Shown here piece by piece: positions 6,278 to 59,323 of a stretch of 64,000 nt of DNA. The notes under the pieces were generated by a model, which was not told the origin of the DNA, made no database searches, and saw only the letters and a list, made by a program, of their open reading frames with translations. The stretch covers positions 2,762 through 66,761 of the forward strand of contig JAHFHX010000004.1 in NCBI GenBank assembly GCA_023246655.1. The letters run 5' to 3'. The first letter of the stretch is position 1, and each line of letters starts with the position of its first letter. A program made the position numbers and the translations under genes. Source of the DNA: Candidatus Magasanikiibacteriota bacterium. GTDB lineage: Bacteria > Patescibacteriota > Patescibacteriia > Magasanikbacterales > GWA2-37-8.

Positions 6278-6289
6278 ATTTAGATGGAC

Positions 6290-14497: not shown

Positions 14498-16165
14498 CTA
14501 GATCTCATCAAACAACCCACCCTTACCAAGTAGTCCAACATTATGGCTATAATCTACCGGTACGTCGATGATGACCGGTCCTTTGATTTTGAAAGCTTGG
14601 GCGAGGGTAGGGGCAATGTCAGTAGGTTTTTCAGCACGTAGGCCGGTTGCGCCAAAGGCCTCGGCATATTTAACAATATCAGGATTCCCAAATTTGGTAC
14701 CGGAGATGCGACCATGAGAGACCATTTGCTGAATTTCTACAAGGTTGTAGCCGCCGTCACGCCAGACAATGTGGACCAGATTGAGTTTGCGTCGAACCGC
14801 TGTTTCAAGCTCCATCGCGCTCATGAGGAATGACCCGTCACCAGAACATGAGACAATTCGACGAGTCGGCTCAGCGAGACGCGCGGCAATAGCCCAGGGC
14901 AAGGCGACGCCCATGGTTTGAAAGCCCATGCTAAAGAGGAGTGTTTTTGGCTCAAAGGTAAAGTATTCCCGGGCGAGCCACACCTGGTGGGAGCCGACGT
15001 CAGAGATAACAATGTCGGTATCTTTGAGGGCACGGCGAATTTCCGCGACGAGACGGGCGGGATGAGTTTTTTGGCCGTCGTGGGCCAGGCCACGAGCCTG
15101 CTCTTTGAGGAGAATTTGTTGGGAAGCTCGCTCGCTTTTTGTTAAACTCCAGTGACTATTTTTAAGGTGAAATTGTAGGCGTTTTAAAATTGCAGCAATA
15201 TCGCCAATTAATTCGGCGGCCGGAGTATAGTTGCTGTCAACATCAGCTGGGAGACGGTCGATATGAATAATTTTGGCTTTAGTTGGCCACATGGTGGGAG
15301 CATATTCCACAACGTCGTAGCCAATGGTGAGCACAACATCCGCTTCGCGGAGGGCTACATCGCCGGGCTCTTCTACTGCTAAGCCAACGCGACCAAGGAA
15401 TTGCCCTACTAGCTCGCGGCCTACCACGCCGGCTGCCTCAAAGGTGCCTACGGCAGGGATGCCAGTTTTTTTGAGGAAGACTCGTACGGCGGTAGTTGAT
15501 CGATGATCAGCGGACCCGACGCCGAGGAAGACAACCGGACGCTTAGAATGTTCAAGGCATTTTGCAATCTCGGCCAATTTTTCATCATACACTTCCTCGT
15601 TTTCTTTAGTGTCAGGGAGTCGTACAAGTGGTTTTCCAGCATGTGTTCCGGTGAGAATGTCGGTTGGAAACGCTAGATGCGTGGCGCCAGCGCGTGGAGA
15701 AGCGGCTGTACGAAAGGCTTGGGCTACTGCTTCCGGAATTGCGGCGGTGTCTTCCAGTTCAACGCTCCACTTAGTAATAGGGGCAAATAGTGCGGCGGCG
15801 TCAATATTTTGGTGGCGATTTTGGAATCGATGGGCACGTGGAGTTTGCCCAGTGAGGGCTACCACCGGATCACGGTCAGCTGTGGCCGTCGCTACGCCAG
15901 TAACAAGATTGGTGGCACCCGGACCAACGGTGGCTATACAAACACCCGGTTTTCCGGTAAGCCGGCCCCAGGCCTGGGCCATAAATGCGGCATTTTGTTC
16001 GTGGCGACAGACCACAAATTCTGGCCCACGGTCATGGAGCACATCTAAAATTGGCATTAGTGACGCTCCGGGGACACCAAAAATATATTTAACATCGTGC
16101 GCTTCCAGGCAATCTACCAAGAGTGCGGCGCCCGATTTAGCGATGATTTTTTTGTTTTTTGGCAT
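14498..16165 (-). CDS. thiamine-pyrophosphate enzyme of the acetolactate synthase large-subunit family
   Basis: The protein is about 555 aa with a Pyr domain (GVPGASLMPILD), a central domain and a TPP-binding GDGSF motif. The start is chosen at MPKNKK, the ORF's second Met. Confidence 0.7.
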   Translation of the reverse strand: MPKNKKIIAKSGAALLVDCLEAHDVKYIFGVPGASLMPILDVLHDRGPEFVVCRHEQNAAFMAQAWGRLTGKPGVCIATVGPGATNLVTGVATATADRDPVVALTGQTPRAHRFQNRHQNIDAAALFAPITKWSVELEDTAAIPEAVAQAFRTAASPRAGATHLAFPTDILTGTHAGKPLVRLPDTKENEEVYDEKLAEIAKCLEHSKRPVVFLGVGSADHRSTTAVRVFLKKTGIPAVGTFEAAGVVGRELVGQFLGRVGLAVEEPGDVALREADVVLTIGYDVVEYAPTMWPTKAKIIHIDRLPADVDSNYTPAAELIGDIAAILKRLQFHLKNSHWSLTKSERASQQILLKEQARGLAHDGQKTHPARLVAEIRRALKDTDIVISDVGSHQVWLAREYFTFEPKTLLFSMGFQTMGVALPWAIAARLAEPTRRIVSCSGDGSFLMSAMELETAVRRKLNLVHIVWRDGGYNLVEIQQMVSHGRISGTKFGNPDIVKYAEAFGATGLRAEKPTDIAPTLAQAFKIKGPVIIDVPVDYSHNVGLLGKGGLFDEI

Positions 16166-16469
16166 AGGGAAGCGTGCTTGGCACATAGGTGCCTGCGCGA
16201 ATTACCAGGAGGGTACAGCCCAGCGGAGAGCGCGAGGTGTGCACTGAGTTTTTTGAGTTAATTTTAAAGGCACCTTTTTTGTAGCGACCAAATTCATCTT
16301 GGAGTTCGCCATCAAGTACATAGACCCATTCAAAGTTGGTATGACGATGGGTGGGAAGCACAGTTCCCGCCTTAATACGGACGAGTTCGGTGCGGAGTTT
16401 AGTGGTAAAATCTTCGGCAAGAATTTTGATGGTGACGCCAGTGGGGCGAATGGATTGAGCGGTTGGCAT
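16137..16469 (-). CDS. cupin-domain protein
   Basis: The two-His cupin motif is present (GTVLPTHRHTNFEWVYVLDGEL). The gene overlaps the start of the downstream TPP enzyme. Confidence 0.5.
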   Translation of the reverse strand: MPTAQSIRPTGVTIKILAEDFTTKLRTELVRIKAGTVLPTHRHTNFEWVYVLDGELQDEFGRYKKGAFKINSKNSVHTSRSPLGCTLLVIRAGTYVPSTLPYAKKQKNHR

Positions 16470-21002: not shown

Positions 21003-21038
21003 AAAAAACCATCCCGACTGAGTCCGGATGGTTTTTTG
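21003..21038. terminator. bidirectional terminator CCATCCCGACTGAGTCCGGATGG between convergent genes
   Basis: The same hairpin family as at 2034 and 34582, flanked by A-run and T-run. Confidence 0.65.
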
Positions 21039-21058
21039 TTATAAATAATTACGCTTTG

Positions 21059-23753: not shown

Positions 23754-25055
23754 TTAATATCGATAATGCCCTGGTTTAAATGGTCCGTTTGCTGAGACCC
23801 CAAGGTAATCTGCCTGTTTCTTGGTTAGTTTTGTAAGCTTAACACCAAGTTTGGGGAGATGTAATCGTGCCACCTCTTCGTCTAATTCTTTTGGCAAGGT
23901 GTAGACTTTGCCACTCTCATATTTTTTACCTTCTTGCCACAACGAAAGTTGCGCAAGCACTTGGTTGGTGAATGATGTACTCATTACAAAACTGGGGTGG
24001 CCGTGGGCGTTGCCGAGGTTGACGAGGCGGCCACGGGAGAGAAGCACTAAACATTTTCCCGAATCCCACACGAATTTGTCGACCTGCGGTTGGATGTTTT
24101 CTTCTCTAATATTTTTTTGACTGGTGAGCCAAGCCACGTCGATTTCGGAATCAAAGTGGCCGATGTTGCAGACGATGGCGCCATCTTTCATTTTTGTCAT
24201 GTGTTCGCCCGTGATAACGTCGCAGCAGCCGGTGGCGGTTACAAAGATGTCGCCGATGGGGGCTGCTTCGTCCATGGTGACGACTTCGTAGCCTTCCATG
24301 GCGGCTTGGAGGGCGTTGATAGGGTCAATTTCAGTGACGAGAACACGGGCGCCAAACCCGTCCATGCTTTGCGCACAACCTTTGCCAACGTCACCAAAGC
24401 CAGCCACCACCACTACTTTGCCGGCGATCATAATATCGGTGGCCCGTTTAATACCGTCGGCGAGACTTTCACGGCAGCCATATTTGTTGTCGAATTTGGA
24501 TTTGGTCACCGAATCGTTGACATTAATTGCGACCGTGCCAAGCGTGCTACGCTCCATCATTTGGTACAGACGATGAACGCCGGTCGTTGTCTCTTCGGAA
24601 ACACCTTTAAGTTCTTTAAGCATTTCTGGGTGTTTTTCGTGAACAACAATAGTAAGGTCGCCACCATCATCGAGGAGAAGGTTGGGACCTCGTCCATTGG
24701 AAAATTTTAGACTTTCTTCCACACACCACCAGTATTCCTCTTCTGTCTCACCTTTCCACGCAAATACGGGGATGCCAGCAGCAGCGATCGCGGCGGCGGC
24801 GTGATCTTGCGTGGAGAAAATATTACAGCTACTCCACCGCACCTCGGCACCGAGTTCCACAAGGGTTTCGATGAGGACAGCGGTTTGGATAGTCATATGG
24901 AGGCACCCGGCGATGCGGGCGTCTTTGAGTGGTTTTTTGCCTTTAAATTTTTTACGTAATGCCATAAGACCTGGCATTTCTTTTTCTGCCAGAATAATTT
25001 CCTTGCGGCCCCAAGCAGCAAGAGAGATGTCTTTAACTTTGTAATCATTTTTCAT
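23754..25055 (-). CDS. ahcY: adenosylhomocysteinase
   Basis: The protein is 433 aa with an NAD-binding [10 protein letters not shown] motif and an N-terminus [13 protein letters not shown] typical of SAHH. Confidence 0.9.
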
Positions 25056-25184
25056 AACACGGATTTAGTAAATGATTTAGACAAATTGTGAGGCGTGTTG
25101 TTCTGGGTGTTACAAATTTTTTTATATAGACCGGTACACACCCCAAGTTTTTTGCGATGTTCTCTCTTATAACTTGTGCCATAT

Positions 25185-26207
25185 TTAGAGATTAATTATT
25201 TCACCATATGTTTTTTGGTACCGTACGCAAAACGCTTCTTTTGTAAACGCATGTTCCTGTGTTCCATACGTCTCAATAGCATAACTCGCCGCGACGGAAC
25301 CGATTTGGGCGCAGGTTTTGAGAGGGAGGTTGTTTTCAAAACCCACCAGAAAGCCTGCGCGGAAAGCGTCGCCGGCGCCGGTGGGGTCGTCCACGGATTG
25401 GGGTGGGCAGGGGGCGACGTTGATTTCCTCGCCGTCTTGCGTAGTAATGATGGAACCTTTTTCACCAAGGGTCGTGATGAGAATGTTGGTTTCTTTTAAA
25501 ATATCCGCAGCGCTCCAACTGGTACGGTCTTGGAGGAGTTTCATTTCGTAGTCATTGCCAATAACAAAATGGCTTTTGCTTATCATACTCCGGAGTTCGA
25601 TGTCGGTGAAAGCAGTTATTTGTTGACCCGGGTCGAACATGGCCGGGATGCCGCGTTCATGGCATTCATGGAGATGCTTCATCATGACGGTTTTGTCGGT
25701 GGGGGAGATGATGGCGAGGTTTACTTTTTTGTCATCCCGAGTGAGGTTCGCACCGACGAGGGATCCCTGTCCGTCGATTGGTGATTGAGCCAGAGATTCC
25801 TCCTTCGTCGTCGGAATGACAGTTGGGAGGTGAGGCGTTTCTTCGAGCGGCCCATTGTAAAAGGCGGTTACCTGGTTGTCATCCATGTCGGTGGTGATGT
25901 AGGCGGAGGCGGAGAGTTTGGTTTTGTCTTGATAGATGTGGTCAGTTGCGATGTCGAATCTTTTAAAGTGATCGAGGTAGTCTTTCGCGTCTTTTCCAAC
26001 AGCAGAAACAATCATGGGGTTAGCGCCCAACATTTTTATCGTAAAGGCAATGTTGCCGGCGGTGCCGCCCCAACTGCGTTCTAATTTATCCACCACAAAA
26101 CAGACGTTAAGAATATGAATCTGTTCTGGCATGATGTGATTCTTAAAGCTGTCCGGAAAATTCATGATGTAATCGTAGGCGAGGGAGCCGGAGATGAGGA
26201 TGGACAT
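25185..26207 (-). CDS. PfkB-family carbohydrate/nucleoside kinase carrying an in-frame family-A repeat insertion
   Basis: The PfkB signature DPTGAGDAFRAGFL is present. The extra segment TVIPTTKEESLAQSPIDGQGSLVGANLTRDDKK is encoded by the repeat. Confidence 0.75.
   Translation of the reverse strand: MSILISGSLAYDYIMNFPDSFKNHIMPEQIHILNVCFVVDKLERSWGGTAGNIAFTIKMLGANPMIVSAVGKDAKDYLDHFKRFDIATDHIYQDKTKLSASAYITTDMDDNQVTAFYNGPLEETPHLPTVIPTTKEESLAQSPIDGQGSLVGANLTRDDKKVNLAIISPTDKTVMMKHLHECHERGIPAMFDPGQQITAFTDIELRSMISKSHFVIGNDYEMKLLQDRTSWSAADILKETNILITTLGEKGSIITTQDGEEINVAPCPPQSVDDPTGAGDAFRAGFLVGFENNLPLKTCAQIGSVAASYAIETYGTQEHAFTKEAFCVRYQKTYGEIINL
25731..25822. repeat. family-A nested-palindrome element (GTCATCCCGAG...GGAATGACAG)
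   Basis: It shares both termini and the inner GGGATCCCTGTC / GCCAGAGATTCC inverted repeat with the copies at 37842, 43470/43810, 54131 and 54502. Confidence 0.85.
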
Positions 26208-26774: not shown

Positions 26775-27749
26775 TTAAACATTCTCTTTGAGACCACTGC
26801 CTGTTAAAATTAAAACAATCTTTGCGCATTGATTCGGTTGAGGTATTTTTGGCAAGGCAGCAACAGTGGCAGCCGCCGCTGATTCTACAAAGATTCCTTC
26901 AATCCGAGCTAAAAATTGTTGGGCAGCGGTAATTTCTTTATCCGTCACTGATACCAGCGCTCCGTCTGAAGCGCGCACTAAATCAAGCGTCAGTTTTCCA
27001 TCAAGTGGACAACCAACATTCATGGCAGAAGCGATGGTTTTTGGTTTGCGAATCGCGCAGATGGGTTTATTATTTTTCCATGCAGCGGTAAGTGGATCGG
27101 CGCCGAAACCCTGGACGCCGATAAATTGGGGGCGTTGATTTTTTTTTGCAAAACCTTCGGCGGTAGCGCAACCAACGGTGCCATTGCCAATTGGGCATAT
27201 AAATGCCGAAAAATTTATTCCGGAACAGGCCAACTCAATTCCAATGCTGCGTTGTCCTTCACGTCGTACTTCATAATCCCCGCAGAGGAGAAGATTTTTT
27301 TTCGCTGCCAGTGCTATTGCTTCCCCAACACATTCATCATAGTTGCCGTTTATTTTTACTAATTCTGCTCCGGCAATAGTTGCTTGGCGTAATTTGGTTT
27401 CTGGAGTAATGGTCGGTACAACCACGTAACATTTGAGACCAGCTCTGGCGGCGTATGCTGAGAGGCTTGCTGCCATGTTACCGGTCGAAGCACATACTAC
27501 GCCTTGTTTGTTGTGCGACAAGGCAATTTGGATCTCACTAACACTGCCGCGGTCTTTGAATGACCCGGTGGGGTTTTGAAATTCACATTTTGCCCAGATT
27601 TCACCAGCCCACTCTAATTTTTTCTCCAGCTGTAATAACCGAATCAGCGGTGTGCTTCCTTCCCCCATGACACTTTTGTTGGCCGTCGACCATTGGCGGT
27701 ACTCAAGCGATTGGCGGTACATATTTTTTTGGTTGTTTAAGTGGGCCAA
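26775..27749 (-). CDS. PLP-dependent enzyme of the threonine synthase / Trp-synthase-beta fold family
   Basis: The NPTGSFKDRG lysine motif is present. The protein is 324 aa. Confidence 0.6.
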   Translation of the reverse strand: MAHLNNQKNMYRQSLEYRQWSTANKSVMGEGSTPLIRLLQLEKKLEWAGEIWAKCEFQNPTGSFKDRGSVSEIQIALSHNKQGVVCASTGNMAASLSAYAARAGLKCYVVVPTITPETKLRQATIAGAELVKINGNYDECVGEAIALAAKKNLLLCGDYEVRREGQRSIGIELACSGINFSAFICPIGNGTVGCATAEGFAKKNQRPQFIGVQGFGADPLTAAWKNNKPICAIRKPKTIASAMNVGCPLDGKLTLDLVRASDGALVSVTDKEITAAQQFLARIEGIFVESAAAATVAALPKIPQPNQCAKIVLILTGSGLKENV

Positions 27750-29274
27750 TTGCTTTTTCCACCGCCGACACCAATTCTTCCGATTGAATCATGGTTTTTA
27801 TCATCTCTACGTATGGATACAGAATGGTATCCTCTTTTATATAAGGTACTTTACTTCGAACCAATTCATATGCTGCCCGAACGCCAGTGCCTGGCTTCTT
27901 TCCTTTTTTGAATTCGAGAGCTTGGCAACCAAGCATGAGCTCAATGGCGAGGACATATTGAGTGTTTCGTAAAATTCGTTGAATTTTGAGTGCGGCATTG
28001 GTGCCCATGGAGCAATCATCTTCTTGGCCGGCCGAGACCGGGATGGAATCAACAATACCGGGATAACATAAAATTTTATTTTCATTCACAAGCGCGGCCG
28101 AGGCATATTGCGGCATCATGAATCCAGAATTTAACCCGCCGGATTCGATGAGAAACGCTGGCAATATTTTGCTGTAATAGGGGTTATTCATTCGTTCCTG
28201 ACGAATTTCAGATGCACTGGCATATTCTTGAAGAGCTTGGGCCATCGTTTCCAGTGGCATGCAAATAGGCTGTCCATGAAAATTTCCTCCTGATAGCACC
28301 TCATTGGTTTCAATAAATACCAACGGGTTATCTTGAGCGGCATTCATTTCAATTTCAAATTGTCGTTGTATCCATAACAAAGCCTCGCGACTCGCCCCTA
28401 AAATAACGGGGGCACATCGGATTGAATAACAATCCTGCACACGCGTTGGCGGTCCGGCCAAAATTTCACTATTTTTCATCAAAGCGCGGAGATTCCTCGC
28501 TGCCGTTACTTGTCCGGGGAAGCGACGGGCTCGCGCGATTTTATCAGCCAAGGCTTCTTGGACAACTTCGATAGATTCCATAGTAGCGGCGCACGCAATT
28601 TCTGACACCGCCGCAATCTGTATAGCGTCATATAATTCAAGCGCTCCAAGACCGATCATAAAAGTATCTCCATTTATAAGAGCCAACCCTTCCTTGGCTT
28701 CTAGTTGTAGGGGTGTAATTTTGGCACGGTCCAGAGCCTCTTTTGCCGGCAATCGCTGCCCTTCATAAAAAGCTTCACTTTCACCAAGCATTGGCAATGC
28801 CATCATGGCAAGTGGAGCTAAATCACCACTTGAGCCAACTGAACCCTGTTCGAGTACCAGTGGCGTGACGCGCTTATTTAACATGGCGACGAGTGTCTCT
28901 AACACAATTGGTCTGGCTCCAGACATGCCCGATGCTAAATAGTTAGCTCGGCAGAGCATGGTGGCGCGGACAACCTCTTCTTTTGCTGGGTCGCCTACCC
29001 CGGTACTGTGGCTGCGTACTAAATTGAGTTGTAACTGCGCTGCCTGTTCCTCATTAATAAATACTTGAGAAAATTCTCCGAATCCGGTGGTGACTCCATA
29101 TATTTTTTCTTTGGCCTGAATTTTGCTTCGCAAAATTGCGCACCCTTCTTTACAACGTTTGTTGGCTTCTGGGTCAATGCGTACGGTTGCATAATTACGT
29201 GCCACCAGCTTAATTTGCTCGATAGTCAATGACCGTCCGTCGATGGTTACAGTTGTATTTTGCAGATTAGACAT
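27703..29274 (-). CDS. hutH: histidine ammonia-lyase family (aromatic amino acid lyase) protein
   Basis: The protein is 523 aa. The MIO-forming loop reads GSVGSSGDLAPLA, i.e. Ser-Ser-Gly in place of the canonical Ala-Ser-Gly. Confidence 0.8.
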   Translation of the reverse strand: MSNLQNTTVTIDGRSLTIEQIKLVARNYATVRIDPEANKRCKEGCAILRSKIQAKEKIYGVTTGFGEFSQVFINEEQAAQLQLNLVRSHSTGVGDPAKEEVVRATMLCRANYLASGMSGARPIVLETLVAMLNKRVTPLVLEQGSVGSSGDLAPLAMMALPMLGESEAFYEGQRLPAKEALDRAKITPLQLEAKEGLALINGDTFMIGLGALELYDAIQIAAVSEIACAATMESIEVVQEALADKIARARRFPGQVTAARNLRALMKNSEILAGPPTRVQDCYSIRCAPVILGASREALLWIQRQFEIEMNAAQDNPLVFIETNEVLSGGNFHGQPICMPLETMAQALQEYASASEIRQERMNNPYYSKILPAFLIESGGLNSGFMMPQYASAALVNENKILCYPGIVDSIPVSAGQEDDCSMGTNAALKIQRILRNTQYVLAIELMLGCQALEFKKGKKPGTGVRAAYELVRSKVPYIKEDTILYPYVEMIKTMIQSEELVSAVEKAIGPLKQPKKYVPPIA

Positions 29275-29279
29275 ACATT

Positions 29280-30347
29280 TTAAGAATAAGAATTAATGAA
29301 CTGGTTGAGTATAGAGTAATAACTTTCTAAGCTTTTGAGATCGGCCCACTCATTTTTAGCATGGTAGTTACGGCCAATTGGGCCAAATACTACGACAGGC
29401 AGTCCTGCCTCCGAAAAATATTTGGCATCAGAACCAGTGGCCGATTTTTCGAAAGCAGTGGTTTGGCACGTAAATACGTCCAGTAATTTTTTTAATCGTT
29501 GTAGATTACAATTATTTTTTGGCACGGTCATCAGTGGTTTTACCACGCAACCTATCTTTAGCCGCGGCTCTTTAATTTTTTTAATGCCATTTAGCAGTTG
29601 GCGTTTGTCTTCTCCGTTAGTGTAGCGGATGTTTAGAGTTGCCGTGGCAGTAGCAGGGATGCTATTTTTAGCTTCACCGCCGGCCAGGGTAGTTAAAGAA
29701 ATAGTGGGGCGGAATTTTTTTTTGGTTTTCCACAAGGGCAAGTTTTGCAGTTGGGTAATTTTGGCTATTAATTTATCGAGCGCGTTAACCCCGTTTTGCG
29801 GTTCAGCGCTGTGCGCGGCCCGGCCGCGGTAGGTTAGGGTTACATTAACAGTGCCTTTTTGTTGTGTTACCAAATTAAAATCAGTCTGCTCGGCAACAAT
29901 CGTAAAATGGGGCCGTAGGTTTAGTTGTTGTATAGCGACGCGCGCGGCCGTGCCAGTGCTTTTTTCTTCGTCATCAACTAAGAGCAGGCTAAGCGGCGCC
30001 GTTCCAGCAGGGGCATTTTTTATTACCTCAATTAGCACTGCTACCGACCCCTTCATGTCTATGGCACCGCGGCCAAATAATTTATTACCAATTATTTTTG
30101 GAATATAATCGGCGTAATTGCCGGGGACGACATCAATATGCCCGACTAAACATATAATAGGTTTAGTGGTGGTGTTAGTAATGTAGAGAGCGGAGCCAAT
30201 TGGTGTTATGATTTTTTTTATTTTTAGTCGCGAATTTTTTAAATAATTAATAATAAAATTAAAACATTGTTTTTTTGCTTTTTGGTTGTCTTCAGTCGTA
30301 GGGAAACGGATGAGCTGTTTGGCGAGCTTAGTAATATTCTTTGTCAT
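29280..30347 (-). CDS. M20-family metallopeptidase (ArgE/DapE-like)
   Basis: The motifs GHIDVV, AIDMKG and EE are present. The protein is 355 aa. Confidence 0.7.
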   Translation of the reverse strand: MTKNITKLAKQLIRFPTTEDNQKAKKQCFNFIINYLKNSRLKIKKIITPIGSALYITNTTTKPIICLVGHIDVVPGNYADYIPKIIGNKLFGRGAIDMKGSVAVLIEVIKNAPAGTAPLSLLLVDDEEKSTGTAARVAIQQLNLRPHFTIVAEQTDFNLVTQQKGTVNVTLTYRGRAAHSAEPQNGVNALDKLIAKITQLQNLPLWKTKKKFRPTISLTTLAGGEAKNSIPATATATLNIRYTNGEDKRQLLNGIKKIKEPRLKIGCVVKPLMTVPKNNCNLQRLKKLLDVFTCQTTAFEKSATGSDAKYFSEAGLPVVVFGPIGRNYHAKNEWADLKSLESYYSILNQFINSYS

Positions 30348-34563: not shown

Positions 34564-34581
34564 AAACGATTTTTAAAATAA

Positions 34582-34612
34582 AACATCCCGACTGAGTCGG
34601 GATGTTTTTATT
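34582..34612 (+). terminator. terminator hairpin ACATCCCGACTGAGTCGGGATGT followed by a T-run
   Basis: Third copy of the CATCCCGACTGAGTCGGGATG hairpin. Confidence 0.7.
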
Positions 34613-34839
34613 CTAGAAGATGCAAGTATTTTGTATGCTCTAGATGCAGGGTTTCATTGCGAGGAAACCCGACTCTTGGCCGGCGATAGTGTTATCGCCT
34701 GTTTCTTTTCAGCCGTCGTTTGGCCTGGCGACGGATATATTCCCGCGTGGCGGGACTATGGGAGGTGCCGAGATTCTCGGGAAGTACGGGCGGAATGGGT
34801 ACCGCCGTCGATTCCGAGCTCTCAGACTCGCGGTGGCGC

Positions 34840-43456: not shown

Positions 43457-43804
43457 TTATTTTAGATTTGTCATCCCGAGCGAGCCTCGCGGCGACGAGG
43501 GATCCCTGTCCGTTATGTCCCAATACAAATCTTTCCATTTTGGGTTCATACTTTGAATTAATTTAATTTTTTTCTCTCGTCGCCAGGCTTTTATTTCTTT
43601 CTCACGATAGATGGCCTGTTTAATACCATTGTAATGTTCATAATAAACAGGTTTTTTGGTTTTATATTTTTTACTGAAACCACCACCTACCTCATCTTTG
43701 TGTTGTTCGACGCGTTCAATTAAATCATTGGTTACACCAACGTAGATCACATAACTAATACTCGCCATAATGTACGTGTAGAAATTGTAGTGTAATCGCG
43801 GCAT
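43457..43804 (-). CDS. GIY-YIG nuclease-domain protein (115 aa) nested in a family-A repeat
   Basis: The N-terminus YVIYVGVTNDLIERVEQH...YYEHY is the GIY-YIG fold. The last 15 codons (DRDPSSPRGSLGMTN) are encoded by the left arm of the repeat. Confidence 0.8.
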   Translation of the reverse strand: MPRLHYNFYTYIMASISYVIYVGVTNDLIERVEQHKDEVGGGFSKKYKTKKPVYYEHYNGIKQAIYREKEIKAWRREKKIKLIQSMNPKWKDLYWDITDRDPSSPRGSLGMTNLK

Positions 43805-43919
43805 AGCGGTTGATTGGACAGAGATTCCTCAGTCGCGCGAGTTTCTTCGGAATGACAGTTGGGTGGTCTTGATTGAGACAGAGATCCCTCACCCCTGCGA
43901 CGGGGATTCGGGATGACAA
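43457..43919 (-). mobile_element. candidate mobile cassette: family-A left arm, GIY-YIG gene, and two tandem family-A right arms
   Basis: The left arm GTCATCCCGAGCGAGCCTCGCGGCGACGAGGGATCCCTGTCCGTT lies at 43470-43514. Two right arms (TTGATTGGACAGAGATTCCTC...GGAATGACAG at 43810-43858 and TTGATTGAGACAGAGATCCCTC...GGGATGACAA at 43869-43919) flank the gene. The cassette sits between the ABC ATPase and permease genes. Confidence 0.6.
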
Positions 43920-45430: not shown

Positions 45431-46732
45431 TTAATTTAACAATTGTTGTTGTACAATTTGTTCGTTTGCTGGAAGCAACAGAACATGTTTCTTCTTTTTA
45501 AGAACCTGTTTGAGTGCTGAGGGCAGAGAAATTTTTTGGTGGAGGATAGGTTCGAGCGTGTCTTTAAATTTTGCCGGGTGAGCCGTACTCAAAACCACGA
45601 TAGGATGACTAGTGCCACGCTGTTTTTGATAATGCCAGGCGGCCGCAATACCAACAGCCGTGTGTGGATCAATAGTATAGTTGTAATGCTGGTATATTTT
45701 TTTAATGGTCTGCTTTGTTAAAGCCTCGGAAATGCTCGTGCCGATGATATCGCGGCGTATAGCCAGCAGACTGTGTTTATAGAGTTCTACTAGGCGCGCA
45801 AAATTACTTGGATTCCCCACGTCCATGGCATTGGAGATAGTTTGGTGTGAAGGCCTTGGTTTAAATTTTCCGGTTTTGAGAAATTGTGGCACTACATTGT
45901 TACGATTAGTGGCAGCAATAAATTGTTTAATTGGTAAGCCCATTTTTTTAGCCATCAGGCCAGCTACGAGATTACCAAAATTGCCGCTGGGCACTACAAC
46001 CACTGGTGACTCAAAAATTCCAAGGCGGTGCAGTTCAGCAATGGCATGAAAATAATAAAATGACTGGGGCAGCAGGCGCCCAAAGTTAATAGAATTAGCA
46101 GACGAAAGATTTTTTTTAGTTTGTAACTTTGGGTTATTGAGCAGTGCTTTGGCCAGTCGCTGACAATCATCAAATGATCCTTTAATGGCGAACGCGTGAA
46201 TGTTGTTGCCATAAGTAGTAAGTTGTTGTTCTTGGAGGCGACTGACGCGTTTGTGAGGGTAGAGAATATATACGTGCACTCCGGGGACTTTATAAAAACC
46301 ACTGGCTACAGCGCTGCCGGTGTCGCCGGAAGTGGCTACAATAATATTGATGGTTTGGTTAGTCTGTTGTAAATAATAGCTGAGGAGTCGTGCGAGGAAG
46401 CGGGCGCCAACATCTTTGAAGGCGAGGGTGGGGCCGTGAAATAATTCAAGTACGAACAGATTTTTGTCGAGTTGACGGAGAGGGATGGGGAAGTTGAGGG
46501 AATCCTGAAGAATGGACTTAAGTTTGACTGTGGGAATTCCTGCTAAAAATTCTCGGGCGATTGTATGTCCGATGTCTATCAGCGATTGTTTATCAAGCGC
46601 TTTTAAAAATTTTTTAGAGAGTGTTGGAATTTTTGCGGGTATGAACAAACCTCCATCTGGCGCCAAGCCGCGGGTGAGTACGGTGAGAAGATCAGTTGGT
46701 GATATTGTATGATTGGTGCTGTAAAATTTCAT
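45431..46732 (-). CDS. thrC: threonine synthase
   Basis: The PLP lysine motif HGPTLAFKDVG is present. The protein is 433 aa. Confidence 0.85.
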   Translation of the reverse strand: MKFYSTNHTISPTDLLTVLTRGLAPDGGLFIPAKIPTLSKKFLKALDKQSLIDIGHTIAREFLAGIPTVKLKSILQDSLNFPIPLRQLDKNLFVLELFHGPTLAFKDVGARFLARLLSYYLQQTNQTINIIVATSGDTGSAVASGFYKVPGVHVYILYPHKRVSRLQEQQLTTYGNNIHAFAIKGSFDDCQRLAKALLNNPKLQTKKNLSSANSINFGRLLPQSFYYFHAIAELHRLGIFESPVVVVPSGNFGNLVAGLMAKKMGLPIKQFIAATNRNNVVPQFLKTGKFKPRPSHQTISNAMDVGNPSNFARLVELYKHSLLAIRRDIIGTSISEALTKQTIKKIYQHYNYTIDPHTAVGIAAAWHYQKQRGTSHPIVVLSTAHPAKFKDTLEPILHQKISLPSALKQVLKKKKHVLLLPANEQIVQQQLLN

Positions 46733-47226
46733 ACGTGACGTAGTACTCTTTCAACAATAGTAGTAATGTCTAAATCGAGGCAGGGAATAATGTGGTGCGC
46801 GTAGCGCTCGTACACTGGCGTGCGCTCAGTGTAGAGACCAACATATCCTTTCTCTTTAAAGTCCACAATGCCGCGGCTGTTGTCGGCGTTATTGCCTAAG
46901 CGTCGTTGTATTTCGGTAAGGGGGAGTTCCAAGTATATAATTTTCGATTCGTGTTTTATTTTTTCCATCGCCTCTTGCGAATATATAATACTCCCGCCTG
47001 GCGAGAAGACCAAATTAGTAAAGGGTAGCTCTACGGTGAGATCATTTTCTAGTTTAAGGAGCGCTTCTTGGCCTTGTTCGTCAAGAATTTTATCATGACT
47101 GACGCTGGTTTTTTCTAAAATTAAAATATCAAGATCGACAAAGTTCCAGCCGAGTTGATGAGCAATCAATTTTCCGATTGTTGATTTGCCGGAACCCGGC
47201 ATGCCGATGAGGGTGAGGGCGGACAT
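46729..47226 (-). CDS. P-loop kinase of the shikimate-kinase fold, embedded in the threonine operon
   Basis: Walker A (GMPGSGKST), a DLD substrate motif and a LID-like region are present. The protein is 166 aa and its stop overlaps the thrC start. Confidence 0.6.
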   Translation of the reverse strand: MSALTLIGMPGSGKSTIGKLIAHQLGWNFVDLDILILEKTSVSHDKILDEQGQEALLKLENDLTVELPFTNLVFSPGGSIIYSQEAMEKIKHESKIIYLELPLTEIQRRLGNNADNSRGIVDFKEKGYVGLYTERTPVYERYAHHIIPCLDLDITTIVERVLRHV

Positions 47227-47227: not shown

Positions 47228-47400
47228 GAGTTAGGATGGTAGGACAAGAGTCGTATTCCCCGCTTGAGCGGGGTGGTCGCCTCAAGGCGACCGAGGTGTG
47301 TGAGGCCGGTGAGCGGGCGATTCGTCAATGGATGCGATTTTATTGCCCCCGGCGGCTCACACCCCCCTACCCCCCCCCTCACAGGGGGGAGTTGAATATC
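47228..47400. repeat. family-B GC-rich hairpin cluster (CCCCGCTTGAGCGGGG, GCTCACACCCCCC, CCCCCCTCACAGGGGGG)
   Basis: The same motifs recur at 48517-48550, 48947-48990 and 59764-59815. Confidence 0.8.
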
Positions 47401-48491
47401 TATTTTACAAATCCTTGTGCAACTAACAGCTCCCCGTTCAAAATGCCGCCGCCGGCAGCGCCGCGGATGGTGTTATGGCTGAGGCCAACAAATTTGTAAT
47501 CGAATACCGGGCAGGGGCGCAGGCGCCCAACGGTGACCGCCATGCCTTTATCGGCATCACGATCTTTGCGGGGCTGGGGGCGGTTATCTTCCGTACGGTA
47601 GATAATTGGTTGTACTGGAGCGGAAGGCAAATTCAGTTGCTGTGGTAGAGAACGAAACAATTGCCAGCTATTTTTAATTTCGTCGGGAGTTGGTTTTTTA
47701 TCTTTGAATCTGATACTCACGCATGCTAAGTGCCCGTCAATCACTGGTACCCGGTTGCAGTGTGCAGAGATGGTGAGGCCGGTTCGAGGAAGAATTTTAT
47801 TTTCAGCCATTGTACCCAGAATTTTGAGTGGCTCCTGTTCGGTTTTTTCTTCTTCACCGCCAATATAGGGCACGACGTTATCAAGAATATCTAGGCTCGC
47901 TACTCCTGGGTAACCAGCACCTGAGATCGCTTGGAGGGTCGTTACCACAACATCACTGAGCGTGTAGCCAGCTTGTTCCAGTGCATAGAGCGGTGTGAGA
48001 TAACTTTGCAAACTGCAATTGGGTTTAACAATAATGCAGCCACTCCAGCCGCGTTGCTTCTGTTGTGCGGTAATGAGATTAAGATGAGAGGCATTAATTT
48101 CTGGGATGAGCATGGGGATATCCTCAGTCCAGCGGTGAGCGGAAGCGTTGGAAACTACGGCGAGGCCAGCAACTGCATAGGTGTTTTCGGTTTCTTGCAG
48201 TGCAGTTTTATTCGGAAGTTCAATGGCCGAAAAAACTAGGCGGCAATTTTTCGCGGCATTCGTTATATCTTCAACAGCGTGGACGGGAAGTTCTAAAATG
48301 GCTGTTGGTATATTATCGGCCAGGTGAGAACGGCCGGCGATGGCTTCGCGATATGGTTTACCAGCGGAGTTGGCCGAGGCGGCGAGGTGTGTTAGAGTAA
48401 ACCACGGGTGGTTGGCTAAGAGTTGCACATAACGTTGCCCAACCATGCCCGTTGCACCCAGAATACCAACGGGGATTTTATGAGAGATCAT
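47400..48491 (-). CDS. asd: aspartate-semialdehyde dehydrogenase
   Basis: The N-terminus is VGILGATGMVGQ, and the active-site Cys (CSLQS) and His regions are present. Confidence 0.9.
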   Translation of the reverse strand: MISHKIPVGILGATGMVGQRYVQLLANHPWFTLTHLAASANSAGKPYREAIAGRSHLADNIPTAILELPVHAVEDITNAAKNCRLVFSAIELPNKTALQETENTYAVAGLAVVSNASAHRWTEDIPMLIPEINASHLNLITAQQKQRGWSGCIIVKPNCSLQSYLTPLYALEQAGYTLSDVVVTTLQAISGAGYPGVASLDILDNVVPYIGGEEEKTEQEPLKILGTMAENKILPRTGLTISAHCNRVPVIDGHLACVSIRFKDKKPTPDEIKNSWQLFRSLPQQLNLPSAPVQPIIYRTEDNRPQPRKDRDADKGMAVTVGRLRPCPVFDYKFVGLSHNTIRGAAGGGILNGELLVAQGFVK

Positions 48492-48512: not shown

Positions 48513-48926
48513 TTAATCCCCCCTCGAGGGGGGTAGTGGGGGTGTGAGCCCTTTGCGTGGCTCAATCCAATCGACAATTCGTTGGGTTACATTGTCAATA
48601 TCGCGACGCACCTCGTGTTCTTGAAATCGTAATACAATAAATCCTTGTTGTTCTAATTGTTGCTGTCGTTTTTTATCATATTCCATTTGAGCATCATGGC
48701 CAAAGCCATCGAGTTCAATTATAAGTTTTAATTCACGACAGTACAAGTCAACAATATAATTCAGTATTGTTGTTTGACGAATGAACTTGTAACCAAGTAA
48801 TTGGCGGCCTTTTAGTTTTTTCCACAATAATACTTCGCCGAGCGTAGAATTTTTACGTAAGTCTCGAGCTCGATTTTTAAGATTTGTTTTATATAAAGAG
48901 AACGTTCGGTTTGTTTTGATAACCAT
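48513..48926 (-). CDS. DUF559 (Vsr-like very-short-patch-repair endonuclease fold) protein
   Basis: The C-terminal sequence GFIVLRFQEHEV and the motifs LLGYKFIRQ and VDLYC match DUF559. Confidence 0.7.
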   Translation of the reverse strand: MVIKTNRTFSLYKTNLKNRARDLRKNSTLGEVLLWKKLKGRQLLGYKFIRQTTILNYIVDLYCRELKLIIELDGFGHDAQMEYDKKRQQQLEQQGFIVLRFQEHEVRRDIDNVTQRIVDWIEPRKGLTPPLPPSRGD

Positions 48927-48990
48927 ATTAGTGACGACTCTCGGAAGCTCACACCCCCCGTGAACCCCCCTCAAGGGGGGATTTGAGCTC
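48517..48990. mobile_element. DUF559 gene bracketed by roughly 35-bp inverted family-B repeats
   Basis: The left repeat is TCCCCCCTCGAGGGGGGTAGTGGGGGTGTGAGCC (48517-48550). The right repeat, GCTCACACCCCCCGTGAACCCCCCTCAAGGGGGGATTTGAGCTC (48947-48990), is its inverted counterpart. Confidence 0.55.
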
Positions 48991-51405
48991 TTTAATACTT
49001 TGTAAAATTCCAGAGAGGACACCGGCTGCGGTAACCTCGGGGCCAGCACCAGGGCCGCGAATGACCAGCGGAGAGTGGTGATAGTGCGTAGAGGTAATAG
49101 CAACAATATTGTCGCTGCCGGTGAGATTATAGAAGGGATGATCTGGGCCAACGAGGCGAAGTTTTACTAAAGCGCGATTACGTTCTATGGTAGCAATATA
49201 GCGGAGCACTTTTTTATTGCGGGCGGCCTGTTTTTTTTGTTGTTCGAATTCAGCATCGTATTTTGGCAAGAGACGGAAAAATTCGGAAATTGAGGCGGCG
49301 TGCGCACAAGCTTTGGGGAGTAGATTATCGATTTTGACTTCCGATGTTTCCAGTTGCCAACCGCATTCGCGTGCGAGGATGACGACTTTGCGCACCACAT
49401 CAACCCCGCCCAGATCAACGCGCGGATCAGATTCCGTGAAACCTTTATCTCGTGCTTCCTTTACTAGAGCACTCCAGTGCTTGGCGCCAACAAAGCTATT
49501 GAAGAGAAAACTTAATGTTCCTGAAAGAATTCCTTCAATTTTAATTATTCTGTCGCCACTCTCAATGAGGCGTTGTAGAGTGGTGATAATTGGTAGTCCA
49601 GCTCCCACATTGGTTTCATAATGCCACGGTGTTTTTTGAGCCAATGTTTTTAGGAGTTGATAGTTTTTGTTTGGCCCAGCAGCCGCCTGTTTGTTGGGGG
49701 TTACTATCGCAATTCCGGCCTCGAGCAATTCTGGATAGTAAGGAACGATATCTGCTCCGGCTGTGCAATCTACGAGGACGCGACGTGGGAGTAGTGATTT
49801 TTTTAGAGTTTCTAGAAATATCTTTAGATCGGGCGCTCTTCCTACCGTGGTTAACGTTTTTTTCCAGGCGGAACTCTGTATGCCTTGTTCATCAATGAGC
49901 ATCGCGTGGTTATTTGTTAATCCGACGAGCTTGATTGACGGTTGATTTTTTATCATGTTTAACAATGTTCCGCCGACCACACCGGTTCCAACCACAAAGA
50001 CAGCTGTAGTATTGGCAGTATTTTTAAAAAATGCCTCGTGAATAGCTTGGAGCGCTCTAATTTCATCCCGGCCTTGGATTACCACAGAAATATTGAGCTC
50101 AGATGACCCCTGGGCGATAGCCACCACGTTTATTCCGGCGTGCCCAAGCGCATTAAAAACAGTGCCACTCACCCCAGGCGTGTGGCGCATATTTTCTCCT
50201 ACCACGGCGATGATGGAAAGGTTCTCGGTAATTGTGAGAGGTTCTAAGTAATGCCCAGAGAGCTCCAGGGCATATTCATTTTCAACCACGCGGCGCGCTA
50301 AAATAACATCGGCCGCTGCCACCGCAAAGGAAATAGAATATTCAGAGGAGGCCTGGGTAATGAGAATAATATTAATACCAGCTCTTGCAATAGCGCCAAA
50401 GAGGCGTTCGGCCATGCCAGCAACACCGACGAGCCCACTGCCGGCTACGGTGATCATCGCAATTTTTTGAATTGAAGAAATACCTTTTATCGCATAGGAG
50501 AACGGCTTATCTTCGAAATTAATAAGCGTGCCCGGGTGCCGGGGGTTAAAGGTATTTTTAATTAGAAGTGGGATGTTTGCCTCTAGCGCCGGGAGCATGG
50601 TGGGCGGATGGATAACTTTGGCCCCAAAATAAGACATTTCCATAGCTTCACGGTAGGTAAGTGAGGGCAGGGAGAAAGCGGTAGGAACTTGTTTGGGGTT
50701 GGCAGTCATCACACCATTTACATCGGTCCAAATTTCGATGACGTCGGCTGTGAGGGCGGCCCCAAAGAGGGCAGCAGTATAATCTGATCCACCGCGGCCA
50801 AGTGTTGTGGTTTGCCCAGCAGCGGTTTTACCAATAAAGCCCGTAGCGATGGGAAGGGAGGTTGGGTGATTTTTACACCAGGTTTGAATATTGCGATAGC
50901 TATGGGCGCGGTCAACGTGGGCATTGCCAAAGTGGTCGTCGGTCAGAATAACTTCCCGGGTATCTAAGTATACCGCTTTAAGATCTTGACTTATGAAAGC
51001 GGCCGTAATGATGGTAGCTGAGAGGCGTTCACCAAAGCTCATAATAAAATCCAGCATTGACGGTGTTAATTCTTTCACCAGTGAGACACCATGGATGATT
51101 TGTTTTAATTCTTTGAACATCAACTCAATCTGAGCCATGGCAGCAGGCTGCTGTTTTTCCCCGACGAGTTCTTGGATCGCATCCTGGTGTCGAGTATGGA
51201 GCGCTAAGAGAGGTGGTTGAAAATCTTCACTCCCCGTGCTGGCTCGTTTCCCGAGAGCGATAAGCTGATCGGTGATGCCGCTAAAAGCCGAAACTACTAC
51301 CACCAGCTGCCGATGTTTTCTGCGGGTTTCCTTAATAATTTTGATGATTTGTTTAATAGCAGCCGGCGAGCCAACTGATGTTCCTCCAAATTTAAGTATT
51401 TTCAT
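48949..51405 (-). CDS. bifunctional aspartokinase / homoserine dehydrogenase
   Basis: The 818-aa protein starts MKILKFGGTSVGS (aspartokinase), has ACT domains, and has a C-terminal HSDH domain with an NAD GxGxxG motif. Its last 11 codons are encoded by the family-B repeat. Confidence 0.85.
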   Translation of the reverse strand: MKILKFGGTSVGSPAAIKQIIKIIKETRRKHRQLVVVVSAFSGITDQLIALGKRASTGSEDFQPPLLALHTRHQDAIQELVGEKQQPAAMAQIELMFKELKQIIHGVSLVKELTPSMLDFIMSFGERLSATIITAAFISQDLKAVYLDTREVILTDDHFGNAHVDRAHSYRNIQTWCKNHPTSLPIATGFIGKTAAGQTTTLGRGGSDYTAALFGAALTADVIEIWTDVNGVMTANPKQVPTAFSLPSLTYREAMEMSYFGAKVIHPPTMLPALEANIPLLIKNTFNPRHPGTLINFEDKPFSYAIKGISSIQKIAMITVAGSGLVGVAGMAERLFGAIARAGINIILITQASSEYSISFAVAAADVILARRVVENEYALELSGHYLEPLTITENLSIIAVVGENMRHTPGVSGTVFNALGHAGINVVAIAQGSSELNISVVIQGRDEIRALQAIHEAFFKNTANTTAVFVVGTGVVGGTLLNMIKNQPSIKLVGLTNNHAMLIDEQGIQSSAWKKTLTTVGRAPDLKIFLETLKKSLLPRRVLVDCTAGADIVPYYPELLEAGIAIVTPNKQAAAGPNKNYQLLKTLAQKTPWHYETNVGAGLPIITTLQRLIESGDRIIKIEGILSGTLSFLFNSFVGAKHWSALVKEARDKGFTESDPRVDLGGVDVVRKVVILARECGWQLETSEVKIDNLLPKACAHAASISEFFRLLPKYDAEFEQQKKQAARNKKVLRYIATIERNRALVKLRLVGPDHPFYNLTGSDNIVAITSTHYHHSPLVIRGPGAGPEVTAAGVLSGILQSIKELKSPLEGGSRGV

Positions 51406-51652
51406 ATCCTGTATATCAATTTATGTTTTTTAAATAAAACCGACTCCTTAAGGTTGAAGTCGGCTGTTTGATAGGTATGTATCAGACAAACTTCAACCAC
51501 CCTACATGGTGGTAGTGGTGGTTGCAGTATTCGTATTGAGGTGATGCATAGACATGAAAATACTGTAACCCTGGCTTAGGTGTTTGTCAAATTAAGCTGT
51601 GAACAAAAATTGCCGTAGCTCAAACAACGCTTTGTCGTTTCTTCCCTTTCAA

Positions 51653-57022: not shown

Positions 57023-57832
57023 TTACCGTGAGGTCAAATAGTAATTCTGTTCTTTTTTAGAAAATTTTTCAATGGCATATCGTAGCATGGTGCGGGGCAT
57101 TGTTTGATGATGGTGGTTAAGGAATTTTTTTAGCGTCGGCGGCGATTTTTTTCCCACTTCGCGTAGCATCCAGCCGCAGGCTTTCTGAATCAGATCGTGT
57201 TTGTCAGTGAGGAGGAGTTTGGAAATTTTGAGCGTTTCGTCAAAATGATTCGCGCGGATGAAAGCAAAGGTAGCAACGATGGCAATGCGACGTTCCCAGA
57301 GGTTGGTGGAGCGGGCGAGGGTGACGAGGACAGCCAACCGCGGCCGAACCCCCCTCTCTATCTCCCCCCTATAAGGGGGGAGAGGGCCATCAATGCCCTC
57401 CCCTACAAGGGGAGGGACGGAGGGCGGGGTTTTCGTCTCGCGCATTTGGTTGAGTAAGTACTCGCCGACAATCTGCGGGGCGGAGGTGTCGACTAAATCC
57501 CAATTGTTAATTCGTTTGGTGTTTTTGAGGTAGAAGTTGTAAATTTTTTTCTTCTGTTTATTATCCCCGATTTGAAATTGACGTACCAGGATGATAAGGC
57601 CAGTGAAACGCTCCTCATGAACTTTTGATTTGAGTAGTTTTTGTATGTCGGCGAGTGAAAGATCGTAAAATTTTTTGGCGATGGTTCGTTGCTTCGGTAC
57701 GGTGAGCCCAAGAAATAGGTCGCCATGGCCGTATTCACCCGGTGCGGTTTTAAAAAAGCCAGCATAGATTTTGGCTTTGGTGGGGTTGGCATGGGAGCGA
57801 AGAATTTTTTTGAGTTCGGTGAGATAATACAT
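57023..57832 (-). CDS. AlkD-like HEAT-repeat DNA alkylation repair glycosylase carrying a family-B insertion
   Basis: The sequence MYYLTELKKILRSHANPTKAKIYAGFFKT...NNWDLVD matches AlkD. The segment RETKTPPSVPPLVGEGIDGPLPPYRGEIERGVRPRL is encoded by tandem GC hairpins. Confidence 0.7.
   Translation of the reverse strand: MYYLTELKKILRSHANPTKAKIYAGFFKTAPGEYGHGDLFLGLTVPKQRTIAKKFYDLSLADIQKLLKSKVHEERFTGLIILVRQFQIGDNKQKKKIYNFYLKNTKRINNWDLVDTSAPQIVGEYLLNQMRETKTPPSVPPLVGEGIDGPLPPYRGEIERGVRPRLAVLVTLARSTNLWERRIAIVATFAFIRANHFDETLKISKLLLTDKHDLIQKACGWMLREVGKKSPPTLKKFLNHHHQTMPRTMLRYAIEKFSKKEQNYYLTSR
57345..57435. repeat. family-B tandem GC hairpins (CCCCCCTCTCTATCTCCCCCCTATAAGGGGGGAGAGGG...CCCTCCCCTACAAGGGGAGGG)
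   Basis: A GC island inside an AT-rich gene. Confidence 0.8.
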
Positions 57833-58711: not shown

Positions 58712-59323
58712 TTACTTTCTAAAAAAGACAACGCTTGTATAGACCATACTAATTGCGAAGTAGACAAATATGAGAGCAAAAATTTTAAAGATAACTGGAA
58801 TGGCTTTGGGGTGAGATAATATTTTTCTAAAGCGTGAAAAAATAAAGGCAACGCCAGCAGTGGAAATAAACCAGCCAATTTCCACAAGAAGCAGAAAAAT
58901 TAAATTGCCGAGCGGTAGTTGTTGGTTCAACAGTATTGCTTTGGGGATGCACACTGTAATCCAATAGGTCCAGAGTACACCATTAGCAAGAATCATGCCG
59001 GCGATTTTCCAAAAACTAAAATACACTTTTTCTTCGGTATCCAGTTTTTTTATTTTCCAAATGGAAGTGGCAATCCAAACAAGGATACCGGCGCCAAAAA
59101 AAGAGAGACCACGAAAAACGGACTCTGGCAGGCTGAGCGCTGATAAGGCAATGAGGCTCGCGAGTGCCACGGCAGTCTCCGTAGCCATGGCGAGGGTGAT
59201 TATGCGAAAACTTTTCCAAAATCCATTCTGCAGTATCTCAGTAAAGGTGGCGGTGAGGACGGGCCCAGGGATTAAGCCGCCAATGAGACCTAAGACCAGA
59301 GCGCTGAGAAGCTCGTTGAGCAT
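58712..59323 (-). CDS. LysE/RhtB-family amino-acid exporter
   Basis: The N-terminus reads LGLIGGLIPGPV and the protein has six TM helices. Confidence 0.6.
   Translation of the reverse strand: MLNELLSALVLGLIGGLIPGPVLTATFTEILQNGFWKSFRIITLAMATETAVALASLIALSALSLPESVFRGLSFFGAGILVWIATSIWKIKKLDTEEKVYFSFWKIAGMILANGVLWTYWITVCIPKAILLNQQLPLGNLIFLLLVEIGWFISTAGVAFIFSRFRKILSHPKAIPVIFKIFALIFVYFAISMVYTSVVFFRK

Follow-up and report, generated by a model that had tools for sequence, protein, structure and literature searches.

A probable homoserine kinase with the shikimate-kinase fold in a threonine operon of a Patescibacteria bacterium

Introduction

The closest described counterpart of the protein considered here is DvMF_0971 of Desulfovibrio vulgaris Miyazaki F, annotated as a shikimate kinase, whose mutants are rescued by threonine (Price et al. 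2018, PMC5764234). A clone of DvMF_0971 rescued an E. coli thrB mutant, and the same genome has a separate, essential shikimate kinase (PMC5764234). The family model NF040667 derives from that work, with DvMF_0971 as its founding member (PMC5764234), and the second "shikimate kinase" of Desulfovibrio symbionts has been re-annotated on the basis of DvMF_0971 (PMC7608387). The present analysis concerns a gene on a stretch of 64,000 nucleotides (nt) of contig JAHFHX010000004.1 (assembly GCA_023246655.1, Candidatus Magasanikiibacteriota bacterium), called the window below. The gene lies in a threonine operon, and its product, kinase X, is in all probability an ATP-dependent L-homoserine kinase with the fold of shikimate kinases (a P-loop fold like that of nucleoside monophosphate kinases), to judge from its sequence and surroundings.

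The thrB step has other non-orthologous occupants as well, ThrB2 (TIGR02535, phosphoglycerate-mutase-like) and ThrH, often encoded in asd/hom/thrC clusters (PMC9026213, PMC7311316). Homoserine kinase is among the steps that genome-based predictions of amino-acid biosynthesis most often score as missing: its confidence was low in 20% of 148 prototrophs (PMC7311316), and both ThrB and ThrB2 are absent from 50 gut genomes (PMC9026213). Our literature search found nothing on homoserine kinase in Patescibacteria (the Candidate Phyla Radiation, or CPR) and no paper besides that of Price et al. citing DvMF_0971.

Results

A kinase in the thrB position

The genes of the cluster run on the minus strand in the order thrA – (DUF559 insert) – asd – X – thrC. 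Those of the pathway, together with X, are:

48949..51405, minus strand: thrA, bifunctional aspartate kinase / homoserine dehydrogenase I, 818 amino acids; NF006959, 970.5 bits (cutoff 726), residues 1-805
47400..48491, minus strand: asd, archaeal/EA-type aspartate-semialdehyde dehydrogenase, 363 amino acids; TIGR00978, 391.8 bits (cutoff 301.2)
46729..47226, minus strand: kinase X, the homoserine-kinase candidate, 165 amino acids plus stop; Pfam SKI, NF040667, signature, tree and fold
45431..46732, minus strand: thrC, threonine synthase, 433 amino acids; TIGR00260, 295.8 bits (cutoff 167.1); domains Thr_synth_N, PALP and THR4_C

Every step from aspartate to threonine is covered here except homoserine kinase. 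A scan of 53 of the window's 57 ATG-started open reading frames (ORFs) of at least 70 amino acids, including all those of at least 140, found among the 53 no GHMP kinase, no ThrB2-type (phosphoglycerate-mutase-like) protein, no HAD ThrH and no aro gene.

Protein X begins MSALTLIGMPGSGKST and carries the Walker A motif GMPGSGKST at residues G8-T16. Its Pfam SKI (PF01202) score is 96.4 bits (cutoff 22.1). An AlphaFold2 model built on an alignment of 97 homologues has a predicted local distance difference test (pLDDT) score of 95, and its best matches in the PDB, found with Foldseek, are all shikimate kinases, among them those of M. tuberculosis (MtSK) and A. baumannii, with template modeling (TM) scores of 0.81-0.85. 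The TGA stop of X (46731-46729) overlaps the ATG of thrC (46732-46730) by 4 nt, as ATGA, the junction reading ...CACGTATGAAAT. A longer reading of X, 217 amino acids from a GTG at 47382, was rejected; the extension is repeat sequence with no counterpart in the homologues, and for this reason translation probably starts at the ATG at 47226.

The original prediction, made from the letters alone, described a protein of the NMP-kinase fold bearing GMPGSGKST, translationally coupled to thrC, in a cluster holding aspartokinase/homoserine dehydrogenase, asd and thrC and missing a GHMP-type ThrB. All of this stands, through the ORF, the SKI match and the modeled fold, through the ATGA overlap, through the TIGR00260, TIGR00978 and NF006959 matches, and through the scan of the 53 ORFs. 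The ORF of 166 amino acids that it reported is real, but that figure counts the stop codon; the protein has 165.

The nearest relatives of X, 44-78% identical, come from Patescibacteria/CPR (Paceibacteria, Harrisonbacteria, Uhrbacteria and metagenome-assembled genomes labelled Saccharibacteria) and from one member of the Elusimicrobia. Where the databases give close relatives a name, it is "shikimate kinase", "AAA family ATPase" or hypothetical. The identical protein turned up on two short contigs only, and the species is not among the 80 loci listed by the GTDB scan considered below, whose best match is 52% identical.

Residues of the acceptor site

In shikimate kinase, the substrate is contacted by Asp34, Ile45, Phe49, Arg58, Gly79-81, Arg117 and Arg136 (PMC2593004), and its carboxylate is held by Arg58 together with Arg136 (PMC3646032). 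The proteins of X and of the related loci considered below were aligned with E. coli AroK and AroL and with MtSK, in whose numbering positions are given unless X's own is stated. Arg58, G79-G80-G81 and R117-P118-L119 are present in AroK, AroL, MtSK and all of the aligned proteins encoded beside aro genes. At these positions, X retains G79, G80, R117 and R136, but Leu replaces R58, Ser replaces G81, His replaces I45, Leu replaces F49, and Gly replaces P118 of the lid. The signature residues, in X's own numbering, are L57, P76-G77-G78-S79, Y82, R118-G119-I120 and R135. The residues of phosphoryl transfer (K14, S15, D31, D33, R109, R118 and R135) are all retained; of these, K14, S15, D31 and R109 serve ATP and Mg, D33 is the Asp that binds the acceptor hydroxyl, and R135 is a carboxylate-binding Arg.

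These changes recur throughout the family. Among 97 close relatives of X, the position of Arg58 is occupied by Leu in 70, Ile in 11, Met in 5, Ser in 5, Val in 4, Lys in 2 and Arg in none; Ser79, Tyr82 and Pro76 are invariant (97/97), and Gly119 is found in 92 of the 97.

It is here that a first alternative must be considered, that X is a genuine shikimate kinase of the AroK/AroL type lying by chance in a thr cluster, with homoserine kinase encoded elsewhere or absent. The SKI domain and the shikimate-kinase fold fit this idea, as does the public annotation of close relatives, and four of the shikimate contacts are retained in X (D33, G77-G78, R118 and R135). The residue that joins in holding the carboxylate, however, is Leu in X and Arg in none of the 97 relatives, and G81, I45, F49 and P118 have changed as well. 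Further evidence on this point, given below, comes from gene neighbors, fusions, the operon leader and model scores, and altogether we consider a genuine shikimate kinase very unlikely.

Gene neighborhoods in other genomes

A GTDB scan at one genome per species listed 80 loci, which were searched with the threonine- and aromatic-pathway proteins of E. coli and of the window. Eleven are CPR loci whose proteins are 44-55% identical to X, and in nine of these asd lies directly upstream. Within the nine, thrC follows at most 500 nt downstream in five and thrA lies upstream in seven, counts to be read knowing that several of these contigs stop close to the X homologue. No aro gene or GHMP thrB was found within 8 kb in the 11 loci. 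An intermediate group, 33-43% identical to X (L013-L028, L030 and L032), has neither thr nor aro neighbors; it comes from Asgard and Micrarchaeota archaea, Methanosarcinaceae, Planctomycetota, Porticoccaceae, several Clostridia and a Desulfovibrio. In the other 52 of the 80, the pattern is Arg58, GGG and RPL (50 aligned, two fragments inspected), and 36 of them adjoin aroE, aroC, aroA and/or aroB. By comparison, none of the 28 loci of the GGS clade among the 80 has an aro gene within 8 kb, and E. coli ThrB found no match by tblastn in any of the 80. That X's clade has no aro neighbors, while Arg58/GGG proteins of the same scan usually do, again goes against X as a shikimate kinase.

The arrangement around X varies. 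In a Harrisonbacteria genome (L090) the order is thrA-asd-X-thrC with every junction overlapping, in Uhrbacteria it is hom-ask-X-thrC, and in Elusimicrobia X-thrC stands alone; two further metagenomic relatives have thrA-asd-X-(glycosyltransferase)-thrC and thrA-asd-X-thrC. The rest of the cluster differs across phyla, but X and thrC stay paired. At one locus (L099, GCA_030700025.1), whose protein is 48% identical to X, the gene occupies the same position among those of H+-PPase, trigger factor, ClpP and TyrRS as does the thr operon of L090, without thrA, asd or thrC. It may be a vestige of a lost operon, or the thr genes may have been relocated.

The residue changes follow the same division. 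Among the loci aligned, G-G-S is found in every protein of the CPR group of 11 and of the intermediate group. Across these two GGS groups, Tyr lies three residues after G-G-S in all but one protein (L032), the lid is R-G-[ILV] in all but two (L015 and L018, with R-A-I), and Arg58 is replaced except in a subset from Planctomycetota and Porticoccaceae. The Desulfovibrio protein of L030 matches X throughout, with Leu at position 58, GGS followed by Tyr at MtSK position 84, and R-G-[ILV] in the lid. One signature (no Arg58, GGSxxY, R-G-[ILV]) would appear, from these alignments, to tell the homoserine kinases apart from the shikimate kinases (Arg58, GGG, RPL).

Since the members from Planctomycetota and Porticoccaceae retain Arg at the position of Arg58, their substrate is less clear. 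That this subset of the wider clade keeps the residue also bears on the possibility that X is bifunctional, phosphorylating both shikimate and homoserine. Either reaction phosphorylates an alcohol, and the two kinds of enzyme have in common the fold and several residues of the acceptor site. Arg58, however, occurs in no member of the CPR subclade, neither the window ORFs scanned nor the related loci include an aro gene, and an essential shikimate kinase of Phaeobacter that was tested for a dual role failed to complement thrB (PMC5764234). A bifunctional X is accordingly hardly to be expected.

Fusions with threonine synthase and the breadth of the family

A profile search of 1.84 billion representative sequences, at E<=1e-30, returned 665 proteins, and fusions were sought among the top 150. 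Two of these are fusions of ThrC with an X-like domain, P0226 (607 amino acids) and P0268 (613 amino acids), at loci L101 and L102, both from AT-rich marine metagenome organisms. In each, Thr_synth_N, PALP and THR4_C are followed at the C-terminus by the kinase domain, and each kinase domain has the family signature. On two contigs assembled independently of each other, a single unbroken ORF encodes P0226. The kinase domain comes after ThrC in the fusions, whereas in the operon X precedes thrC, so the fusions are not artifacts of read-through. Here too the case for a shikimate kinase suffers, the fusion partner being ThrC and not AroB.

Other kinases of the GGS type are fused to a MiaB-like radical-SAM/TRAM protein, to GrpB and to riboflavin kinase (P0210, P0188 and P0255). 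Such partners raise the question of whether X might phosphorylate some other small hydroxylated metabolite connected with threonine metabolism (such as threonine, serine or 4-hydroxythreonine) or have a regulatory or ancillary kinase role toward ThrC in place of making O-phosphohomoserine. Some family members moreover have no thr neighbors, and homoserine is a substrate that we infer from sequence. Set against these points, homoserine kinase is the sole step missing from the cluster, X fills the thrB slot between the genes that form homoserine and thrC, and the sole relative to have been tested, DvMF_0971, is a homoserine kinase. O-phosphohomoserine is the substrate of this type of ThrC. A different substrate or an ancillary role seems unlikely.

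In a neighbor-joining tree of 82 sequences with 200 bootstraps, the GGS group, with the L030 protein and X among its members, forms a single clade in 87% of bootstraps, apart from the aro-linked shikimate kinases; the CPR subclade is found in 90%. By this evidence, X and the Desulfovibrio protein, which passes NF040667 (235 bits, cutoff 197), have a common ancestry.

The clade comprises about 665 clusters at 50% identity. The GGSxxY branch extends through Patescibacteria, Elusimicrobia, Clostridia, Planctomycetota, Porticoccaceae, Methanosarcinaceae and Asgard and DPANN archaea, and it is annotated as shikimate kinase almost everywhere. The chances are about even that the branch as a whole (~665 clusters) is a large homoserine kinase family crossing domains.

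A threonine leader upstream of the operon

Upstream of thrA is one further element:

51432..51590, minus strand: operon leader region, with promoter-like site, leader ORF, antiterminator and terminator

The promoter-like site at 51590-51562 reads TTGACA-17-TACAGT. It is followed by a leader ORF of 17 codons (MSMHHLNTNTATTTTTM, 51555-51502) with a run of Thr codons and by an antiterminator segment, GGUUGAAGU (51498-51490), perfectly complementary over 9 bp to ACUUCAACC (51460-51452). The latter lies within the 5' arm of the terminator hairpin, which with its U-tract occupies 51464-51432. The fold of the leader has a z-score of -4.2. Four related CPR loci (L004, L007, L090 and L091) likewise have leader ORFs with Thr runs, 126-147 nt ahead of thrA; the peptides are MNKVVFTTTTTTTSP, MFRIISTTTTTTLSPLLRS and, in two of the loci, MKIIATTTTAAVSSIFAGVF.

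With the Thr codons masked, folding still favors the terminator (-13.2 kcal/mol, against -11.5 for the 9-bp antiterminator), so the attenuator model rests on architecture and conservation and not on minimum free energy. The Rfam model Thr_leader (RF00506) aligns over its full length at 51433-51542, with 19.9 bits and an E-value of 0.23, below its gathering score of 55; at gathering thresholds, Rfam found only a tRNA in the window. Because of the Thr-run leader with its terminator and antiterminator, and because of the Thr-run ORFs in the four relatives, the operon, X included, would be tied to the charging of threonyl-tRNA. We infer that the leader peptide acts as an attenuator that would turn the whole operon on when threonyl-tRNA runs short. 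A threonine attenuator on the operon is one more point against a shikimate kinase.

Model scores and the assignment of function

The best NCBIfam match of X is NF040667, "homoserine kinase" (hom_kin_desulfo), at 133.1 bits. Shikimate-kinase models give it at most 65 bits (the best being AroL, NF002988, cutoff 161), and the equivalog cutoffs of such models run from 142 to 217, a shortfall that also counts against its being a shikimate kinase. Control proteins limit what can be read into the absolute scores. X and seven relatives (from CPR, with one from Elusimicrobia) score 109-137 bits on NF040667 and 42-92 on the shikimate-kinase models, a ranking opposite to that of true shikimate kinases, which put shikimate-kinase models first (E. 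coli AroK 359 bits on its own model, against 119 on NF040667; MtSK 123, against 99). Since AroK and MtSK reach 119 and 99 bits on NF040667, only the ranking of the models is informative, and the absolute score was dropped as proof of function. Pairwise identity was likewise set aside as a discriminator.

Several considerations weigh against X as a homoserine kinase. Its NF040667 score is under the curated cutoff of 197 bits, and the same model gives true shikimate kinases the scores just cited. X is 33% identical to the Desulfovibrio enzyme and 34% to MtSK, and homology alone is weak for X because the first figure is no higher than the second. Four family members (L009, L011, L099 and L100) have no thr gene nearby. 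The tree was made by neighbor joining only. The genes read are those of the 64-kb window, and a canonical thrB or a shikimate pathway might be encoded elsewhere in the genome. Finally, evidence of activity among homoserine kinases of this fold comes from DvMF_0971 alone, the members of the CPR type being known from sequence.

It is context, fusions and signature that carry the case for the function of X, not raw homology. The residue changes, the gene context and the ThrC fusions are what make the three alternatives unlikely. The original prediction that a protein of the shikimate-kinase fold fills the homoserine-kinase step is strongly supported by the gene order, the ThrC fusions, the threonine attenuator and the lost shikimate-binding residues.

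If X is a homoserine kinase, it would make O-phospho-L-homoserine for the overlapping downstream ThrC and so close the pathway from aspartate to threonine (ThrA, Asd, X, ThrC) in a Patescibacteria bacterium. MgATP would be bound through the unchanged P-loop and lid. Asp33 would play the part that Asp34 plays for the 3-OH of shikimate, orienting the homoserine gamma-hydroxyl for in-line transfer, and Arg135 would hold the alpha-carboxylate. The loss of Arg58, with the new Ser79, Tyr82 and His44, may reshape the acceptor pocket for a small zwitterionic amino acid. The product would then be handed to ThrC, translationally coupled to X here and fused to it in some organisms.

Insertions in the operon and other features of the window

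Two further features interrupt the operon:

48513..48926, minus strand: DUF559 (Vsr-like endonuclease) gene between thrA and asd; PF04480, 121 bits
47227..47399, strand not assigned: asd–X spacer, 173 nt, with a GC-rich repeat copy at 47350-47388; repeat families D7 and I23

The GC-rich repeat, CGGCGGCTCACACCCCCC...CCCCTCACAGGGGG, brackets the DUF559 gene with copies at 48942-48980 and 48528-48550; besides the copy in the spacer, another lies at 57341-57379. The final 13 codons of thrA (ELKSPLEGGSRGV, to 48949) are read out of this repeat. The DUF559 insert is missing from relatives, whose corresponding genes overlap, and the gene is no part of the threonine pathway. In compact relatives such as the Harrisonbacteria operon, asd and X overlap, as opposed to the 173-nt spacer here.

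Elsewhere in the window, a pair of 43-nt inverted repeats (43468-43510 and 43877-43919) flanks a small gene for a GIY-YIG nuclease (43457-43804), and relatives of the repeat lie at 25729, 37846 and 54129; the impression is of a family of small elements, mobile or repetitive. A perfect palindrome, AAAAACCATCCCGACTGAGTCGGGATGGTTTTT, with runs of A and T, occurs in three intergenic copies (2032-2068, 21004-21040 and 34578-34614), which look like shared bidirectional intrinsic terminators. The likely region of the replication origin is at dnaA-dnaN (4895-7664).

The window also encodes a short pyridoxal-phosphate enzyme of 315 amino acids (26775-27722, minus strand), whose best NCBIfam match is TIGR00260 threonine synthase at 163.4 bits (cutoff 167.1). 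Its gene overlaps hutH (histidine ammonia-lyase, 27703-29274, minus strand, 566 bits), and 5 nt upstream of hutH is a gene for a DapE/ArgE-family deacylase (29280-30347, minus strand). There are, in addition, an AlsS-type acetolactate synthase (14498-16186, 683 bits), an adenosylhomocysteinase adjoining a PfkB-family kinase (23754-26207) and a LysE-family amino-acid exporter (58712-59323). The amino-acid-related metabolism of the window exceeds what is usually expected of CPR genomes.

Discussion

The original prediction had taken X for a further case of non-orthologous replacement. That does not hold: the same replacement was published in 2018 and is encoded in NF040667, and with a homoserine kinase like shikimate kinase proven in DvMF_0971 (PMC5764234), X is not a new kind of replacement. 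What appear to be new are the CPR subclade embedded in an operon, the breadth of the clade (the ~665 clusters) and the systematic annotation as shikimate kinase. X is very likely a distant member of the family of homoserine kinases with the shikimate-kinase fold, new to its phylum, embedded in an operon and widely mis-annotated.

The curated model for such homoserine kinases is narrow, which is why the name shikimate kinase persists for this CPR branch embedded in operons and for its relatives. The signature could serve to re-annotate hundreds of protein clusters, avoiding false calls of threonine auxotrophy, and could prevent false calls of a "partial shikimate pathway" in reduced genomes. 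If the GGSxxY branch does consist of homoserine kinases, this would explain many of the "missing thrB" gaps that remain in predictions of auxotrophy. It would also mean that some CPR bacteria, usually regarded as auxotrophs for amino acids, keep a complete threonine pathway under the control of a leader peptide.

Comparison with known systems

The leader resembles E. coli thrL (RF00506) in having, upstream of thrA, a short ORF with a Thr run and, after it, antiterminator and terminator hairpins that exclude one another. It differs in having Thr codons only and no Ile, and in its host, one of the Patescibacteria.

With GHMP ThrB, X has in common the slot in the operon and the inferred reaction; the fold is unrelated, and X has no GHMP domain. 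Most archaea use a shikimate kinase of the GHMP family, and the GHMP and shikimate-kinase folds have thus swapped substrates in both directions. ThrB2 and ThrH differ from X in fold and in phosphoryl donor. The activity of ThrB2 is still unproven, whereas the type with the shikimate-kinase fold has one member proven by complementation.

AroK and AroL (EC 2.7.1.71, PF01202) have in common with X the fold (TM 0.81-0.85), Walker A, the Mg-binding Asp, equivalents of Asp34 and Arg136, and the Arg of the lid. X differs from them in the loss of Arg58, in GGS for GGG and RGI for RPL, in having no aro linkage and in scoring far below the shikimate-kinase equivalog cutoffs.

The nearest system is that of DvMF_0971. 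Both types have the shikimate-kinase fold, about 165-185 amino acids, the same inferred reaction and a place in the same clade of the tree, and GGSxxY, R-G-[ILV] and a residue other than Arg at position 58 are common to X and the Desulfovibrio protein of L030. Identity is only about 33%, however, and the L030 homologue has no thr genes within 8 kb, whereas X is part of a coupled thrA-asd-X-thrC operon. The CPR subclade has, in addition, invariants of its own, Pro76 and, in most members, His44.

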